This document shows, in pieces, positions 7,363-12,984 of a stretch of 12,984 nt of DNA. Source of the DNA: a virus (lineage: Duplodnaviria > Heunggongvirae > Uroviricota > Caudoviricetes); IMG/VR virus record IMGVR_UViG_2859799533_000002. The stretch is one strand, 5' to 3'. How positions within the stretch are numbered: the first letter of the stretch is position 1; every line of letters begins with the position of its first letter. Made by a program: the position numbers and the translations under genes. Below the pieces are notes generated by a model, which saw only the letters and a list, made by a program, of their open reading frames with translations, made no database searches and was not told the DNA's origin.

Positions 7363-8147
7363 GTTGGAGTCATTACCGAAAATCTCAATGTATTCCCGTA
7401 TTACTGAGATGGCTTCATCCCGGTTATTAAAACGATAGTGGCTCAGGCTCTCATTTTTCAGCGTTCCCCAGAAGCTTTCCATCGGAGCGTTGTCGTAACA
7501 GTGACCTTTACGCGACATTGATGTTTTCAGACCAGACTGCTCCTGTATGACCCGGTAATCGTATGCGCAGTACTGTGAACCTCGATCAGAGTGGTGGATT
7601 AGCCCGGCAGGTGGGCGCTGGCTCCTGAGCGCCATAAACAGGGCTTTACCTGTCAGCTCTTTTGTCATGCGCTCTCCCATGGCGTAGCCGACAATTTCGC
7701 ACGTATAAACATCTTTGATGCCAGCGAGGTACAACCATCCCTCCTGTGTGGCAACATACGTCAGGTACGCCACCCAGACCTGATTTGGTGCTGTAGGAGC
7801 GAACGTCTGGTTCAGCAGATTTGGCGCAACTGGCAGATTGTGGTTCGGGTTCGTAGTCGCTCTGAACTTGCGTTTCTGCTTACAGCGTAGCCTTAGCTCC
7901 TTACGAAGACGTGCCAGTCGGTCACGACCAACGATGATGCCATTCTCTGCCAGCTCCGTCTGGAGCCGCCGGGTTCCATATGTTTCGCGAGTGCGGATAT
8001 GTGCCACCTTAATCTCCAGTTTTAGCCGCTCATCACTTTGTTTTCTGTCTGAGGGTTCATGCTGTACCCAGTTGTAATAACCGCTCCTGGATACACCAAA
8101 TACCTGACACATCGCTTCAATGGGAAATTGTTGTCGCCATTGTTCGA

Positions 8148-8450
8148 TTAACGCGTATTTTTCAGCGACTCCTGTGCAAAATACGCTGTTGCTTTTTTTA
8201 ATATATCTCGCTCAAGGCGAGCTTCATTTAACGCCTTACGCAGTTGCAGAATTTCAGATTCCAGTTCAGCCACCGTGCGGGAACCAGGAGTACCGAGCCC
8301 TTTTCTGGCGGCGGTAACCCATTGTCCTAAAGTGCCTTCAGGAAGGGATAATCGGGAAGCGCCTTCACTGATCGAAAGTTGATTTTCAAGAACCGTTCTG
8401 ACAGCTTCGGCTTTGAACTCTTTAGAGTAACGTTGGTTTTTTCTGCTCAT
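8148..8450 (-). CDS. IS600 OrfA (100 aa, helix-turn-helix)
   Basis: MSRKNQRYSKEFKAEAVRTVLENQLSISEGASRLSLPEGTLGQWV...; identical to the OrfA of the second IS600 copy at 12682-12984. Confidence 0.85.
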   Translation of the reverse strand: MSRKNQRYSKEFKAEAVRTVLENQLSISEGASRLSLPEGTLGQWVTAARKGLGTPGSRTVAELESEILQLRKALNEARLERDILKKATAYFAQESLKNTR

Positions 8451-8638
8451 TATTAGCTCCTTCTGATGCCATTCTATTTCAGGAAGGAGTGTCCGTTAAA
8501 CTCAGGCTACCTCATATGTCGGGCGCTCATCCGGTATAAGGGATCGCGTTCTTAATATCAATGAAACCGCTGATGTATGGTCTGGTAATGCTGCCAACTT
8601 ACTGATTTAGTGTATGATGGTGTTTTTGAGGTGCTCCA

Positions 8639-8914
8639 GTGGCTTCTGTTTCTATCAGCTGTCCCTCCTGTTCAGCTACTGACGGGGTGGTGCGTAACGG
8701 CAAAAGCACTGCCGGACATCAGCGCTATCTCTGCTCTCACTGCCGTAAAACATGGCAACTGCAGTTCACTTACACCGCTTCTCAACCCGGTACGCACCAG
8801 AAAATTATTGATATGGCCATGAATGGCGTTGGATGCCGGGCAACTGCACGCATTATGGGCGTTAGCCTCAACACGATTTTACGTCACTTAAAAAACTCAG
8901 GCCGCAGTCGGTAA
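8639..8914 (+). CDS. insA: IS1 InsA (canonical isoform)
   Basis: [40 protein letters not shown]...; identical to InsA at 9836-10111. Confidence 0.9.
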
Positions 8915-8940
8915 CCTCGCGCATACAACCGGGCAGTGAT

Positions 8941-9336
8941 GTGATTGTCTGCGCTGAAATGGACGAACAGTGGGGCTACGTCGGTGCTAAATCACGTCAG
9001 CGCTGGCTGTTTTACGCGTATGACAGGATACGGAGGACGGTTGTGGCGCACGTCTTCGGTGAACGCACTCTGGCCACACTGGAGCGTCTTCTGAGCCTGC
9101 TGTCGGCCTTTGAGGTCGTGGTATGGATGACGGATGGCTGGCCGCTGTATGAATCACGCCTGAAGGGAAAGCTGCACGTTATCAGCAAGCGTTACACTCA
9201 GCGCATTGAGCGACATAATCTGAATCTGAGACAACATCTGGCAAGGCTGGGACGGAAGTCACTGTCGTTCTCAAAATCGGTGGAGCTGCATGACAAGGTC
9301 ATCGGGCATTATCTGAACATAAAACACTATCAGTAA
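8941..9336 (+). CDS. insB: IS1 InsB frame (InsAB' by frameshift)
   Basis: InsB homolog; the ORF-track start is downstream of the frameshift site, as expected for an InsAB' fusion. Confidence 0.85.
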
Positions 9337-9835
9337 GTTGGAGTCATTACCGTATGGTCTTATGCTTACGGTAATAATTTGCTAACTCTGTCATCAATAT
9401 ATAACCGAAGAATAATGGTTATCTGCCTGGTGTTTGGTTGCCGACAGCAGGAGGCGAGGCTATCCACCTGGGACGAATGGGATTTAAAAAACTGGGTATG
9501 GACAGTCCCAAAAGAGCACAGCAAAAACAAGGAGGCTATAGTAAGGCCTGTTCCTGACGGAATAAAACAATGGATCGTTAATCTTTACGCAGAAACAAAA
9601 AATCGCGGTTATGTTGTCGGTTGTGCTTTGCAAAGGGCGACAATAACAGGGGCTGCAAACAGAATATGCAGGCGTCTTGGTCATGATACTAATGGCTTGT
9701 GGTGCATACATGATTTCAGGCGCACATTTTCCACTACGCTTAATGATATGGGGGCGGATCCTTATATTGTCGAACTTCTTGGTGATGCTGCCAACTTACT
9801 GATTTAGTGTATGATGGTGTTTTTGAGGTGCTCCA

Positions 9836-10111
9836 GTGGCTTCTGTTTCTATCAGCTGTCCCTCCTGTTCAGCTACTGACGGGGTGGTGCGTAACGGCAA
9901 AAGCACTGCCGGACATCAGCGCTATCTCTGCTCTCACTGCCGTAAAACATGGCAACTGCAGTTCACTTACACCGCTTCTCAACCCGGTACGCACCAGAAA
10001 ATTATTGATATGGCCATGAATGGCGTTGGATGCCGGGCAACTGCACGCATTATGGGCGTTAGCCTCAACACGATTTTACGTCACTTAAAAAACTCAGGCC
10101 GCAGTCGGTAA
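9836..10111 (+). CDS. insA: IS1 InsA
   Basis: 91 aa, canonical InsA sequence. Confidence 0.9.
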
Positions 10112-10155
10112 CCTCGCGCATACAGCCGGGCAGTGACGTCATCGTCTGCGCGGAA

Positions 10156-10533
10156 ATGGACGAACAGTGGGGATACGTCGGGGCTAAATCGCGCCAGCGC
10201 TGGCTGTTTTACGCGTATGACAGGCTCCGGAAGACGGTTGTTGCGCACGTATTCGGTGAACGCACTATGGCGACGCTGGGGCGTCTTATGAGCTTGCTGT
10301 CACCCTTTGACGTGGTGATATGGATGACGGATGGCTGGCCACTGTATGAATCCCGCCTGAAGGGAAAGCTGCACGTAATCAGCAAGCGATATACGCAGCG
10401 AATTGAGCGGCATAACCTGAATCTGAGGCAGCACCTGGCACGGCTGGGACGGAAGTCGCTGTCGTTCTCAAAATCGGTGGAGCTGCATGACAAAGTCATC
10501 GGGCATTATCTGAACATAAAACACTATCAATAA
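10156..10533 (+). CDS. insB: IS1 InsB frame (InsAB' by frameshift)
   Basis: Canonical InsB sequence (..[39 protein letters not shown]..). Confidence 0.85.
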
Positions 10534-10711
10534 GTTGGAGTCATTACCGAACTTCTTTTAGGTCATAAAGTGAAAGGGGTTGCTGGTGTTTACAATAAAA
10601 GCAGGCATATAAAGAAAAAACTTGAGGTGCTTAATATGTGGGTTAATTACCTTAATACGATAGCAGGATTTAACAACAACGTTATCGAGCTTAATAAAGA
10701 GGTGGTGTGAT

Positions 10712-10969
10712 ATGGCAATTTATTCTCTTGTTGATGAAAACGATTTGCGCACAATGAAGGACATTGATCGGTTCATTCGTGAAAAAGAGTGCATAGCACT
10801 TACCACGCTGGCAAACTCAACACGCTGGAAAATGGAGCAGGCAGGTAAATTCCCGCGACGTATCAAGATCGGTGAACGTGCTGCAGGGTATCGACTTTCA
10901 GAGGTTCAGGCATGGATCCGTGGTGAGTGGCATCCTGGATGGAAACCTGGAAAAACAAAACAGCAATAA
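10712..10969 (+). CDS. alpA: AlpA-family phage transcriptional regulator / excisionase-like HTH protein
   Basis: 85 aa; ...LTTLANSTRWKMEQAGKFPRRIKIGERAAGYRLSEVQAWIRG matches the AlpA pattern (short HTH, GKFP, basic, W-R-x-SEV-x-AW); GAGG ribosome-binding site; starts 1 bp after the integrase stop. Confidence 0.8.
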   Translation: MAIYSLVDENDLRTMKDIDRFIREKECIALTTLANSTRWKMEQAGKFPRRIKIGERAAGYRLSEVQAWIRGEWHPGWKPGKTKQQ

Positions 10970-10982
10970 CCAGTAAATAATG

Positions 10983-11005
10983 CCCCTCATCACGAGGGGT
11001 TTTTT
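10983..11005 (+). terminator. Intrinsic terminator after alpA
   Basis: CCCCTC-ATCAC-GAGGGG hairpin followed by TTTTTTGTCT. Confidence 0.6.
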
Positions 11006-11025
11006 GTCTATAAGGTAAAAACGCG

Positions 11026-11604
11026 ATGAATAAAAATATTGCCGTGACGGGCAAGGGGTACGCTCGTCCAGTGAAAAAATTCTGCGATATTCGTGATCTC
11101 GTCGTTCTGCGCTTTGATAGTGTGAACGTTCGTGTGGTGTATCTGAACGGCGATCCGTGGTTTGTTGCAAAAGATGTTTGTGCTGCGCTGGAACTAACCA
11201 ATTCGCGTACGGCGTTGCAGATGCTTGATGATGATGAAAAGGGAGTAAATTTAACTTACACCCCAGGAGGAAATCAGAATATGAGAATTATCTCTGAGTC
11301 AGGTTTCTACAAACTAATAGCCCGCAGCCGCAAAGCAACGACGCCTGGCATATTTGCTCATCGTTTCAGTAACTGGGTATTCAGAAATGTGATACCAGGT
11401 ATCAGAAAAACGGGGACTTATGGTATCCCGTGGGGTGCATTACAGGATTTTTCCCGCCGTAAAGAGCAATATCAAATAAGTGCCAGCGAGAAGGGGAGGG
11501 AGCTACAGGCATGTAAGCGCAAAAAGCGTGAGCAGGAGGAAGAAGAAAAAACGCTGATACGTGAATATCAGCCTGAGTTTTACTTTGGTAACCGCATTCA
11601 GTGA
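11026..11604 (+). CDS. BRO-N domain protein (prophage antirepressor-like)
   Basis: 192 aa; N-terminal ...VVYLNGDPWFVAKDVCAALELTN...DDDEKG...IISESGFYKLIARSRKATTPGIFAHRFSNWVFRNVIPGIRKTGTY matches the BRO-N pattern; charged, Glu-rich C-terminus. Confidence 0.8.
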   Translation: MNKNIAVTGKGYARPVKKFCDIRDLVVLRFDSVNVRVVYLNGDPWFVAKDVCAALELTNSRTALQMLDDDEKGVNLTYTPGGNQNMRIISESGFYKLIARSRKATTPGIFAHRFSNWVFRNVIPGIRKTGTYGIPWGALQDFSRRKEQYQISASEKGRELQACKRKKREQEEEEKTLIREYQPEFYFGNRIQ

Positions 11605-11613
11605 CAAAACAAA

Positions 11614-11634
11614 GGCGACCGCAAAAGGGTCGCC
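11614..11634 (-). terminator. Putative intrinsic terminator for the leftward two-gene operon
   Basis: GGCGACC-GCAAAAG-GGTCGCC hairpin; on the minus strand it is followed by TTTGTTTTGT; 67 bp downstream of the 59-aa ORF stop. Confidence 0.5.
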
Positions 11635-11700
11635 AGTGGGAACAAGGGAAAACAAAAGCATCACCAACAATGCCACATTTGCGGCTGGTGGGCAATGTGA

Positions 11701-11880
11701 TCAGTCAGATTTGGTTCGTTCCAAGGTTTGCAACGAGAGCTTTTTCCTGTGCTCTTTAAGGAATTTCTCAAGAGCAAACGAACAAGGTGCGAATCTTTCT
11801 GATTCATGTTCATGCGCTATATTTTTGCGTCGTCTCTTACGAGTTGGTGATGGTGTTTTGGTTGATTCTGTGTCGCTCAT
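11701..11880 (-). CDS. Hypothetical 59-aa basic protein (not in the supplied ORF track)
   Basis: Hand translation of the reverse complement: MSDTESTKTPSPTRKRRRKNIAHEHESERFAPCSFALEKFLKEHRKKLSLQTLERTKSD*; ATG at 11878-11880, TGA at 11701-11703; AGGA about 9 nt upstream; 57 bp downstream of and co-oriented with the RHH-like gene; followed by the terminator at 11614-11634. Confidence 0.5.
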   Translation of the reverse strand: MSDTESTKTPSPTRKRRRKNIAHEHESERFAPCSFALEKFLKEHRKKLSLQTLERTKSD

Positions 11881-11937
11881 GGTGCTGTCCTGTAAAGCAA
11901 TGCGCCTGCGTTCCTCAAACTATGGCGCTGATATTGG

Positions 11938-12243
11938 CTATTCATGCTCTTTGACCTTGCGTCGCTGGAGTTCTTCACGCGCGACGGTGACGAGTTGCCC
12001 GATCTCCTCGGCTGCTTTGATGCCGATTTGTTCGACCTTAGCCAGGGCATCCAGTGACGACACAAGGGGATTTTCTCCGCTGCCTTCTGCTTGGCGGCGG
12101 GCCATTTCTCCGCGCATGGCGGTTACGATAAATCCGGCATTGCTTTCACCGTCCAGCTTAACGGATTCCATCCCTTGCATAACATCTAGTGGGACTCTGA
12201 CAGTTGTCAGTTGTGATTTTGCGTTTTTGTTAGCCGTTGCCAT
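11938..12243 (-). CDS. Putative ribbon-helix-helix (Arc/CopG-like) DNA-binding protein with C-terminal extension
   Basis: 101 aa; AGGAG ribosome-binding site 8 nt before the ATG; N-terminal TTVRVPLDVMQGMESVKLDGESNAGFIVTAMRGEMARR fits the strand-helix-helix pattern (compare Arc ...NGRSVNSEIYQRVM). Fold assignment is by pattern only. Confidence 0.55.
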   Translation of the reverse strand: MATANKNAKSQLTTVRVPLDVMQGMESVKLDGESNAGFIVTAMRGEMARRQAEGSGENPLVSSLDALAKVEQIGIKAAEEIGQLVTVAREELQRRKVKEHE

Positions 12244-12304
12244 TTCTGAAACTCCTAATCATCGGTGTGTTTCAGTATACACAAAAAAAGAAATACAAAA
12301 AGCC

Positions 12305-12342
12305 TTGACGTGTGTTTCATGCGCTCATAACATGAAACACAC
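12305..12342 (+). promoter_or_regulatory. Rightward sigma70-like promoter overlapped by a perfect 12-bp inverted-repeat operator
   Basis: TTGACG (12305-12310), 17-bp spacer, TAACAT (12328-12333); inverted repeat GTGTGTTTCATG (12310-12321) / CATGAAACACAC (12331-12342) with 9-bp spacer; a further GTGTGTTTCA half-site at 12265-12274; direct repeat GAAATACAAA at 12290-12299 and 12356-12365. Confidence 0.5.
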
Positions 12343-12433
12343 CGAAAGGATTGTTGAAATACAAAGAGCAACGCCCCGCAGTGCTGGGAACACATACGGG
12401 GCGTCTAACCAACAACGTAAACTAGGAGCCGTT

Positions 12434-12625
12434 ATGGTTGCTGTAAATCATATACCACACCTTGTACACACACAAACGGCCTTTGTGTGGCGTTTTCTGG
12501 CACTGAGTGCCGGAGAATCTCAAATCATCCACGTAACCGCCTGGACGGAACGCGAAGCGCGTAGCCGTTGCCCGTCCGGTTGTGTTGCTGTATTCGCTGC
12601 AAAAATCCGCCAGGGAGTGAGGTAG
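12434..12625 (+). CDS. Small rightward ORF of unknown function; native C-terminus replaced by IS600 after codon 61
   Basis: AGGAG 5 nt upstream of the ATG at 12434; MVAVNHIPHLVHTQTAFVWRFLALSAGESQIIHVTAWTEREARSRCPSGCVAVFAAKIRQG then VR* supplied by the IS600 terminus at 12618; it is the only well-initiated part of the otherwise implausible 354-aa ORF-track ORF. Confidence 0.35.
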   Translation: MVAVNHIPHLVHTQTAFVWRFLALSAGESQIIHVTAWTEREARSRCPSGCVAVFAAKIRQGVR

Positions 12626-12984
12626 CCTGAGTTTAACGGACACTCCTTCCTGAAATAGAATGGCATCAGAAGGAGCTAATAATGAGCAGAAAAAACCAAC
12701 GTTACTCTAAAGAGTTCAAAGCCGAAGCTGTCAGAACGGTTCTTGAAAATCAACTTTCGATCAGTGAAGGCGCTTCCCGATTATCCCTTCCTGAAGGCAC
12801 TTTAGGACAATGGGTTACCGCCGCCAGAAAAGGGCTCGGTACTCCTGGTTCCCGCACGGTGGCTGAACTGGAATCTGAAATTCTGCAACTGCGTAAGGCG
12901 TTAAATGAAGCTCGCCTTGAGCGAGATATATTAAAAAAAGCAACAGCGTATTTTGCACAGGAGTCGCTGAAAAATACGCGTTAA
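12618..12984 (+). mobile_element. IS600 second copy, left end (continues beyond the window)
   Basis: TGAGGTAGCCTGAGTTTAACGGACACTCCTTCCTGAAATAGAATGGCATCAGAAGGAGCTAATAATG is the reverse complement of the 8450-8514 terminus of the first copy. Confidence 0.9.
12682..12984 (+). CDS. IS600 OrfA (100 aa)
   Basis: Identical protein to the ORF at 8148-8450; its stop codon is the last triplet of the window. Confidence 0.9.
   Translation: MSRKNQRYSKEFKAEAVRTVLENQLSISEGASRLSLPEGTLGQWVTAARKGLGTPGSRTVAELESEILQLRKALNEARLERDILKKATAYFAQESLKNTR

Follow-up and report, generated by a model that had tools for sequence, protein, structure and literature searches.

A leftward two-gene operon was analysed in a stretch of 12,984 nucleotides (nt) of caudoviricete DNA (IMG/VR record IMGVR_UViG_2859799533_000002), the whole of which is called the window below. 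The operon encodes a 101-amino-acid (aa) ribbon-helix-helix (RHH) protein and a 59-aa basic protein, p59. It is probably the leftward regulatory operon of a phage-inducible chromosomal island (PICI) of the EcCICFT073 type, in which the RHH protein would repress and translation of an antisense frame, resembling eta of the satellite phage P4, would provide a read-through override. The 101-aa protein is regarded as a candidate immunity repressor of the island, with a DNA motif repeated around both divergent promoters co-varying with its N-terminal beta-strand.

An earlier note, made from the letters of the window alone, had described the 101-aa and 59-aa leftward open reading frames (ORFs) with a 57-nt gap, a palindromic promoter region upstream and a hairpin with a U-run downstream. 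All of these were found, the palindrome at 12310–12342, the hairpin at 11634–11614 and each ORF with an ATG and a Shine-Dalgarno sequence. The EcCICFT073-type PICI context and the predicted operators agree well with the suggestion that the pair could be the repressor module of such a satellite. The features of the locus are as follows.

11558–12625, plus strand: eta-like open frame, 354 codons from GTG 11561, antisense to both genes and in frame with the icd-like gene
11614–11634, minus strand: intrinsic terminator GGCGACC-N7-GGTCGCC followed by TTTGTTTTGT (-15.1 kcal/mol, z -3.6 against shuffles)
11701–11880, minus strand: p59, 59-aa basic helical protein, second gene of the operon; ATG, AGGA 8 nt upstream
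11881–11937, minus strand: intercistronic spacer, 57 nt, length invariant
11902–11928, minus strand: inverted repeat GCGCC-N17-GGCGC in the spacer, arms conserved, loop varying between lineages
11938–12243, minus strand: 101-aa YlcI/YnfO-family RHH gene; ATG, AGGAG 8 nt upstream
12265–12364, no strand assigned: predicted operator array of five half-sites at about 22-bp phasing (motif GTGTGTTTCA or its complement)
12265–12274: O1, predicted half-site, exact GTGTGTTTCA
12289–12298: O2, predicted half-site, degenerate
12310–12319: O3, predicted half-site
12333–12342: O4, predicted half-site
12355–12364: O5, predicted half-site, degenerate
12274–12279, minus strand: -10 element TATACT of the leftward promoter, between O1 and O2, read from the sequence
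12305–12333, plus strand: rightward early promoter (PLE-like), TTGACG-17-TAACAT, bracketed by O3 and O4
12370–12407, plus strand: conserved leader hairpin of the early transcript, then conserved TCTAACCA, between the operators and the icd-like Shine-Dalgarno sequence
12434–12625, plus strand: icd-like/P4 Kil-like gene, first of the early operon (RefSeq annotation of intact copies)

The RHH protein and its predicted operators

The palindrome upstream of the operon is made of GTGTGTTTCATG/CATGAAACACAC and overlaps the promoter-like site of the plus strand, whose counterpart in EcCICFT073 reads TTGACG-18-TATAGT. O1 is a third exact copy of GTGTGTTTCA. Exact copies of GTGTGTTTCA occur only three times in 30 kb of an intact relative of the island and are absent from the flanking helper prophage. 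O1 and O2 flank the leftward -10 element, and O3 and O4, which are exact inverted copies, flank the rightward -10 element; this bracketing is seen in nearly all variants.

The region between the RHH start codon and the icd-like gene was compared in 182 related loci, among which 34 variants of the RHH N-terminus were distinguished. In most of these variants a TTGAC-like element was located 61 (±1) nt from the RHH ATG and a 9–10-bp motif recurred about 22, 44, 67, 89 and sometimes 111 nt from it, with the orientation alternating along the array in the clearest cases. The leftward -10 element was mostly kept as TATAnT (TATACT, TATAGT, TATATT, TATAAT) and was weaker in a few loci, e.g., L004 and L012.

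The motif changed together with the N-terminal strand of the protein. The strand TTVRVP was accompanied by GTGTGTTTCA in E. coli and Xenorhabdus, and the same motif was present in a Serratia locus encoding FTVRVP. ISIRIP was paired with GTGTGATTCA (E. coli, Yersinia), LTARIP or VTARIA with GTAAGA, TTIRVP with TGTATATCA and KNIRFP with GTGTGCATA. Such co-variation provides strong comparative evidence for a repressor–operator pair and would be expected of immunity-specificity cassettes. It is mainly because the motif tracks the recognition strand that the protein is called here the putative repressor of both divergent promoters.

The fold of the 101-aa protein was assessed separately. Residues 9–50 matched the NCBIfam model NF041551 (YlcI_YnfO_N) with 58.1 bits against a cut-off of 30, and the short form from EcCICFT073 reached 67.5 bits. 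The protein also matched PHROG 6522, a family of unknown function, and its homologs formed 177 clusters across Enterobacterales. AlphaFold (predicted local distance difference test, pLDDT, 79) predicted an extended N-terminus, helices at 18–27 and 34–53 and one long helix at 58–99. A beta-strand followed by two helices is contained within about 45 residues, with the RHH domain at about residues 9–53, an R-x-P recognition strand and a G-x-S/T/N turn in the sequence DGESNAGF between the helices. R15, P17, E32, A35 and F37 were invariant in the homolog alignment, in which the C-terminal half was conserved as well. The segment TTVRVPLDV was aligned by hhalign in register with FNLRWPREV of Arc, at low probability. 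The RHH-like N-terminus named in the earlier note is accepted on the grounds of motif, secondary structure and family membership, and not of significant similarity to Arc or Mnt. A profile search of the PDB with the RHH alignment gave nothing significant (the top entry was the helix-hairpin-helix segment of Hef, E 0.015), and tblastn with the 101-aa protein gave no match among 50,697 phage records. The C-terminal tail of about 55 aa, which the earlier note had called usual for autoregulatory repressors and type II antitoxins, is predicted to form a single long conserved helix, similar to an oligomerisation domain and unlike an antitoxin tail.

In E. coli K-12, YlcI (prophage DLP12) and YnfO (prophage Qin) share the 42-residue N-terminal domain with the island protein. 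The K-12 copies adjoin the terminase (nohD) region of lambdoid prophages and differ from the island protein in their C-termini, and no functional characterisation of them was found in the searched literature. The lambdoid prophage flanking the intact relative has a 77-aa YlcI/YnfO protein of its own, encoded immediately upstream of nohD (L001 8613–8846, minus strand). This 77-aa protein shares the segment NFSAWV(I/L)xAC with the 65-aa RHH variant located upstream of p59 in some satellites. As the prophage carries a YlcI/YnfO protein, helper and satellite share this family of DNA-binding domains.

The leader hairpin of the early transcript was predicted with -18.4 kcal/mol (z -2.9 against shuffles). 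Three of its base pairs were changed on both sides, 88.8% of cells were paired and none of 500 shuffles reached the covariation score; the compensatory changes were seen across loci of E. coli, Xenorhabdus, Serratia, Yersinia and Pantoea. No Rfam match was obtained for this hairpin. On the minus strand, the same hairpin precedes a T-rich tract.

p59 and the role of the operon

p59 is encoded in the same frame as the RHH protein, 57 nt downstream. As the earlier note had stated, it carries a basic patch (TRKRRRKN) and has no hydrophobic stretch. This Arg/Lys patch is N-terminal, and the core ERFAPCxFALEKFLKE is conserved. Homologs were present in 134 of 183 sequences (the 182 fetched loci and the window) as 37 unique coding sequences (CDS), all intact and 57–65 aa long. 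The conservation expected of a true gene was also found, in a coding-like substitution pattern pointing to protein-level purifying selection on the minus strand. The ATG and the AGGA are conserved, and the ATG lies exactly 57 nt after the RHH stop codon wherever the upstream gene was correctly identified. The RHH partner upstream varies: proteins of 101, 59 and 65 aa were found, as well as a 57-aa Arc-like protein in O157:H7. In RefSeq, the 57-aa Arc-like ORF and the p59 homolog of O157:H7 are unannotated; p59 homologs of some other genomes are annotated, e.g., WP_176553955.1 and WP_000130015.1.

p59 corresponds to PHROG 21027, a family of unknown function, and formed 10 representative clusters among 1.84 billion proteins; tblastn gave no match among the 50,697 phage records. 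The AlphaFold2 model consists of two helices (pLDDT 68). Among the sequences compared, p59 was detected in Escherichia only. In L057 and L066 the spacer and the ATG are kept and are followed by unrelated AT-rich DNA in place of p59, and in L082 this place is occupied by a divergent 75-aa ORF sharing only the FALE motif. On such comparative grounds, p59 is a real gene and represents a conserved but dispensable second cistron.

The inverted repeat in the spacer between the two genes gave a weak predicted RNA fold (z -1.4) and could be a protein-binding site or an attenuating structure. The terminator downstream of p59 is expected to act leftward only, because the plus strand has no U-run. Terminator-like hairpins were found 3' of the leftward genes in most of the 15 lineages scanned, about 5–270 nt from the RHH stop codon in those without p59 and about 295–310 nt in those with it. 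None was found close by in L066, L014 and L017.

The role of the RHH protein could be narrower than that of a master repressor. It might autoregulate only its own operon, with p59 as an accessory payload expressed in quiescence in the manner of rexAB and cI. We consider this unlikely, even though the position of O1 and O2 around the leftward -10 element agrees with it, as does the lineage-restricted and replaceable nature of p59 (L082, L057, L066), which is often seen for accessory genes. The arginine-rich patch of p59 is, we presume, reminiscent of the RNA-binding motifs of N and Nun. It also agrees with this reading that EcCICFT073 interferes with lambda through unidentified genes (PMC6092414). 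However, autoregulation leaves unexplained why the exact inverted copies O3 and O4 bracket the early-promoter -10 element in nearly all variants and why the RHH gene is retained where p59 is absent. A payload role is further disfavoured by the lack of p59 homologs in PADLOC and in the 50,697 phage records, and PICIs are known to have their accessory (defence) region downstream of pri (PMC11364771).

A toxin–antitoxin, addiction or defence cassette had also been proposed, and a type II system with the RHH protein as antitoxin and autorepressor and p59 as toxin now seems very improbable. In contrast to RHH-containing type II systems such as Rv0298/Rv0299, the island operon has no recognisable toxin: p59 matched nothing in Pfam, NCBIfam or PADLOC and its two-helix model is of low confidence. 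The genes are separated by a fixed 57-nt gap and do not overlap. The pairing is not obligatory, as the RHH gene was found without p59 in 40 of 94 RHH-centred loci and in each of the 15 non-Escherichia loci, and many RHH partners of p59 (57–65 aa) lack the C-terminal, toxin-binding tail. The loss of p59 with retention of the RHH gene, observed in L057 and L066, is the opposite of what addiction predicts, and O3 and O4 bracket the promoter of another operon. For p59 as part of the regulatory operon of the island, an accessory or modulatory role (interference with the helper phage, RNA- or DNA-binding co-factor) is favoured over that of a toxin.

The antisense frame is selected only to stay open

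The earlier note had overlooked that the whole operon is placed antisense within a plus-strand ORF. This eta-like frame traverses the promoter/operator region and shares its wobble position with the minus-strand genes. The equivalent open frame has 314 codons in O157:H7 and 428 codons in EcCICFT073. Of 71 region variants, 69 had this frame uninterrupted over the RHH CDS, with a length of 165–819 codons, and the other two antisense frames were closed. In the divergent region between the operons (189–211 nt), 40 of 55 variants had no stop codon in the eta frame, and the other two frames had 2–9 stops. Composition-matched shuffles of this region gave P of 0.012–0.043 per variant, and 11 of 12 mutually divergent variants were stop-free. 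Within the RHH CDS, 184 sites could give an antisense stop by a synonymous change and one of them was used; an antisense stop within RHH was present in one (L065) of 35 unique full-length CDS.

Substitution classes were counted along a minimum spanning tree of the unique sequences. For RHH, changes that were synonymous in the gene and nonsynonymous antisense were observed 97 times (2.06x the neutral expectation), about as freely as fully synonymous changes (2.19x), and those nonsynonymous in the gene and synonymous antisense 46 times (0.73x). For p59 (36 sequences), the corresponding counts were 28 observed against 10.5 expected and 16 observed against 14.4 expected (binomial p 0.003), and no antisense stops were found against 6.2 expected. 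Nine apparent antisense stops in the spanning-tree count were multi-hit artefacts of classifying the changes one at a time.

These classes indicate that the minus-strand proteins are under amino-acid selection and that the plus frame is selected only to stay open. In the RHH and p59 stretches, the substitution classes revealed no amino-acid-level constraint on the eta-like frame. Judged by these comparisons, both minus-strand ORFs exceed chance, and the eta-like ORF enclosing the whole operon is shown to be selected only to stay open. A stop-free frame with a freely drifting protein is the signature expected if translation itself were the function, as was proposed for P4 eta.

The reverse assignment, in which the long plus-strand ORF is a real gene (a Bro/eta/Icd fusion) and the minus-strand ORFs are non-functional shadows, deserves almost no credence: the 354-codon frame is open, its openness is kept across genera, PGAP lists a part of this frame as a pseudogene ('Icd-like, missing C-terminus') and PHROG 29966 is a 188-position profile whose C-terminal part (127–183) matches icd-like, but the two substitution classes of RHH are skewed against it, those of p59 point in the same direction, the minus-strand protein belongs to a curated family also known outside this context, conservation extends to the minus-strand ATG and Shine-Dalgarno sequences, the operator motif changes together with the N-terminus of the minus-strand protein and the plus-strand translation is here a Ser/Leu/Ala/Arg-rich filler.

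Automated annotation of such loci is inconsistent, with spurious plus-strand 'Icd-like' pseudogenes and with p59 and Arc-like genes often unannotated. In some genomes PGAP annotates the antisense open frame as the pseudogene 'Icd-like protein, missing C-terminus', and RefSeq inconsistencies were noted at L002 3250–3423 (minus strand), L002 2807–3400 (plus strand) and L004 2806–3393 (plus strand). A +1 frameshift at the stop codon of the upstream BRO-N gene (CAG-UGA-C), which would join BRO-N to the eta frame, was considered and dropped, as no plausible re-pairing was found.

Island context, comparison with P4 and the proposed switch

The segment 10560–12621 of the window (2.1 kb) recurs in 55 complete E. 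coli genomes with 99.9% identity. The intact island in E. coli APEC O2-211 begins with int, alpA, BRO-N, the leftward RHH gene, icd-like and small ORFs and continues with DUF4222, primase, single-stranded DNA-binding protein, major capsid, decoration protein, a helix-turn-helix protein and terS. It splits the portal gene of a lambdoid prophage (L001 11880–12713/23596–24378), which agrees with the class of 'helper-embedded PICIs' that Tommasini et al. 2023 (PMC10111431) have described. The genes of EcCICFT073 are arranged alike, with alpA followed by two leftward genes, for a 57-aa 'hypothetical protein' and for a 59-aa 'YlcI/YnfO family protein', and then by icd-like through primase. The gene order of Gram-negative PICIs (int and alpA co-oriented at one end, a primase/replication module and capsid/decoration/terS genes) was found in the intact relatives and in EcCICFT073 itself. 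The window retains only int, split by IS1, alpA, BRO-N, the leftward operon and a truncated icd-like gene. The similarity to the intact island breaks off at 12621, where an insertion sequence (IS) replaces the last icd-like codons (insertion at about 12622) and everything beyond. The locus is thus what an IS has left of a Gram-negative PICI of the EcCICFT073 type, a phage satellite related to P4. Upstream of the operon, the following features were identified.

10712–10969, plus strand: alpA (PF05930, 52.2 bits)
10982–11000, plus strand: strong terminator-like hairpin GCCCCTC-N5-GAGGGGT followed by TTTTTTG, directly after alpA and before BRO-N, from the terminator scan
11026–11604, plus strand: BRO-N/anti-repressor-like gene (PF02498, 72.5 bits; PHROG 2593 'anti-repressor', E 2e-84)

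AlpA is an activator in PICIs (PMC6092414). A Pseudomonas protein also named AlpA is described in PMC7969949 and PMC9371919 as a processive antiterminator, and on that account the island AlpA might act by reading through the hairpin at 10982–11000. No comparable hairpin was found in the scan of the equivalent region of EcCICFT073.

The architecture of the locus was compared with the immunity region of P4. According to the summary in PMC10111431, kil (65 codons) is nested in frame in eta (Forti et al. 1999), eta begins just after vis (AlpA family) and contains the constitutive promoter PLE, seqA and CI RNA, and it is translated only from the late promoter, its translation preventing premature termination. 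The island resembles P4 in the AlpA/Vis-family gene upstream, the NF033153 Kil/Icd-like first gene, the primase operon downstream and the long ORF that is in frame with kil and starts upstream of an internal constitutive promoter. A Kil/Icd-like gene nested in frame after an internal promoter was indeed found, with the promoter inside the 354-codon frame and the arrangement conserved. The NF033153 model scored 63.7 bits for intact icd-like and 76.1 bits for P4 Kil; BLASTP gave no alignment between the two, so their kinship rests on the shared profile. A terminator-like hairpin within icd-like (12469–12489) was rejected (z = -0.07).

In P4 used as a control, the eta/kil ORF was recovered and Rfam identified C4 (74.9 bits) and isrK (60.8 bits). 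In the window at 10500–12984 no Rfam match was obtained at E <= 1, and no C4, isrK or other Rfam family was found in L002–L005, L012, L013 and L066. Thus P4 carries C4 (CI) and isrK (seqA) RNAs inside eta, whereas the island loci carry protein genes and predicted operators on the opposite strand. Conversely, no RHH-like ORF antisense to eta was seen in P4, where on inspection none of the short plus-strand ORFs listed had the motif. The simplest reading of these comparisons is that the islands keep the eta/kil architecture and would use a protein repressor–operator system where P4 uses RNA immunity.

In the proposed switch, the 101-aa RHH protein would bind the phased GTGTGTTTCA half-sites bracketing the -10 elements of both divergent promoters, its dimers probably oligomerising through the long C-terminal helix. 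In the quiescent island, its occupancy of O1–O5 would shut off the early rightward operon (icd/kil-like and replication genes) and autoregulate its own operon, with p59 co-expressed as the second cistron. With repression and autoregulation combined, the RHH protein would act like Mnt/Arc of P22 and replace the CI/seqA RNA immunity of P4. After helper induction, AlpA-dependent late transcription would enter from int-alpA-BRO and, by analogy with P4 eta, would be translated in the eta frame and so spared Rho-type termination. This transcript would run convergently through the repressor operon, past the operators and into the icd-like and replication genes, switching the island on regardless of the repressor. 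The BRO-N protein could in addition inactivate the RHH protein. A more far-reaching version, which appears possible but rather doubtful, holds that YlcI-type RHH proteins are the missing master or immunity repressors of Gram-negative PICIs, EcCICFT073 among them, in a two-strand switch. In this version the repressor operon would be antisense to a long ORF selected only for being translatable. Eta-frame translation of AlpA-driven late transcripts would protect them from Rho, silence the repressor by convergent transcription and bypass repression, and p59, through its N-terminal arginine-rich patch, could be a Nun-like, RNA-binding modulator of antitermination in the helper or the satellite.

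Several observations weigh against the switch as proposed. All functional statements on the operon rest on comparative inference. The consensus scan missed the leftward promoter, whose -35 element is poor. Similarity of the 101-aa protein to known RHH repressors is negligible at the sequence level (hhalign probability of 9% for Arc and 1% for Mnt). Foldseek of the 101-aa protein gave no significant match. The start of the eta-like frame is ambiguous (GTG 11561 or GTG 11636, neither with a good Shine-Dalgarno sequence), and 15 of 55 variants have 1–2 eta-frame stops in the divergent region, mostly one shortly before the icd-like start. The antisense openness of the RHH CDS is only weakly improbable under synonymous-codon permutation (P 0.12–0.75), so that the case for the eta-like frame is based on the non-coding stretches and on recurrence across lineages. 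The constraint on p59 is weak. The island of the window is itself defective, as IS1 splits int and everything past icd-like has been deleted, so that the module it carries may be inert.

Among known systems, Mnt and Arc of P22 are small RHH repressors whose operators overlap back-to-back divergent promoters; they autoregulate and keep an ant/icd-type operon repressed during lysogeny. Mnt has a C-terminal helical oligomerisation domain, as the 101-aa form is predicted to have, and Arc resembles the 57–65-aa forms. Unlike in P22, 4–5 half-sites with a phasing of about 22 bp are predicted in the island, and the gene belongs to a satellite and sits antisense inside a long open frame; the sequence similarity is not significant. 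The repressors Stl, of Staphylococcus aureus pathogenicity islands, and Rpr, of Gram-positive PICIs, presumably use the helix-turn-helix fold, which is different from RHH. They are similar to the island system in that a leftward repressor gene diverges from the excision/replication operon of a satellite, and a protein of the helper phage binds and counteracts them (PMC6092414). The island differs in its AlpA-dependent induction and in the orientation of int and alpA, which are directed inward and co-oriented with the early operon.

The founding paper on PICIs left it unclear whether Gram-negative PICIs have a global repressor (PMC6092414). The present analysis provides a concrete candidate that the model island EcCICFT073 carries too. 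Operators are predicted for it, and the apparent specificity classes number at least 34. Gram-negative PICIs are widespread satellites and move virulence and defence genes. The coding arrangement is unusual, as an antisense ORF wholly encloses two functional genes and, across genera, is kept free of stops in both coding and promoter DNA. No paper on the function of these protein families was found in a search that left subscription journals mostly outside. RHH repressors, P4 eta/kil and PICIs are each known; in the literature that could be searched, neither their combination nor the antisense nesting seems to have been described.

The remainder of the window (1–10570 and 12622–12984) is saturated with insertion sequences, a pattern we take to be typical of Shigella-like genomes. 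Four IS1-type copies were located at about 1391–2040, 6665–7362, 8639–9336 and 9836–10533. IS3-family elements are present as well, with the same 100-aa orfA found twice, at 8148–8450 (minus strand) and 12682–12984 (plus strand). A second integrase gene occupies positions 1–1119 (minus strand), and the int gene of the island is split at 9807/10570. A prophage-like stretch at 3150–6493 (plus strand) contains a 391-aa methyltransferase-like ORF, three tRNA genes (Met-CAT 4366–4441, Arg-TCG 4449–4525 and Arg-TCT 4539–4615) and a 462-aa ORF at 5105–6493; toxin genes are missing between the tRNA genes and this last ORF. The stretch is presumably similar to the Q-tRNA-(stx)-nanS-p region found in Stx-type lambdoid phages.

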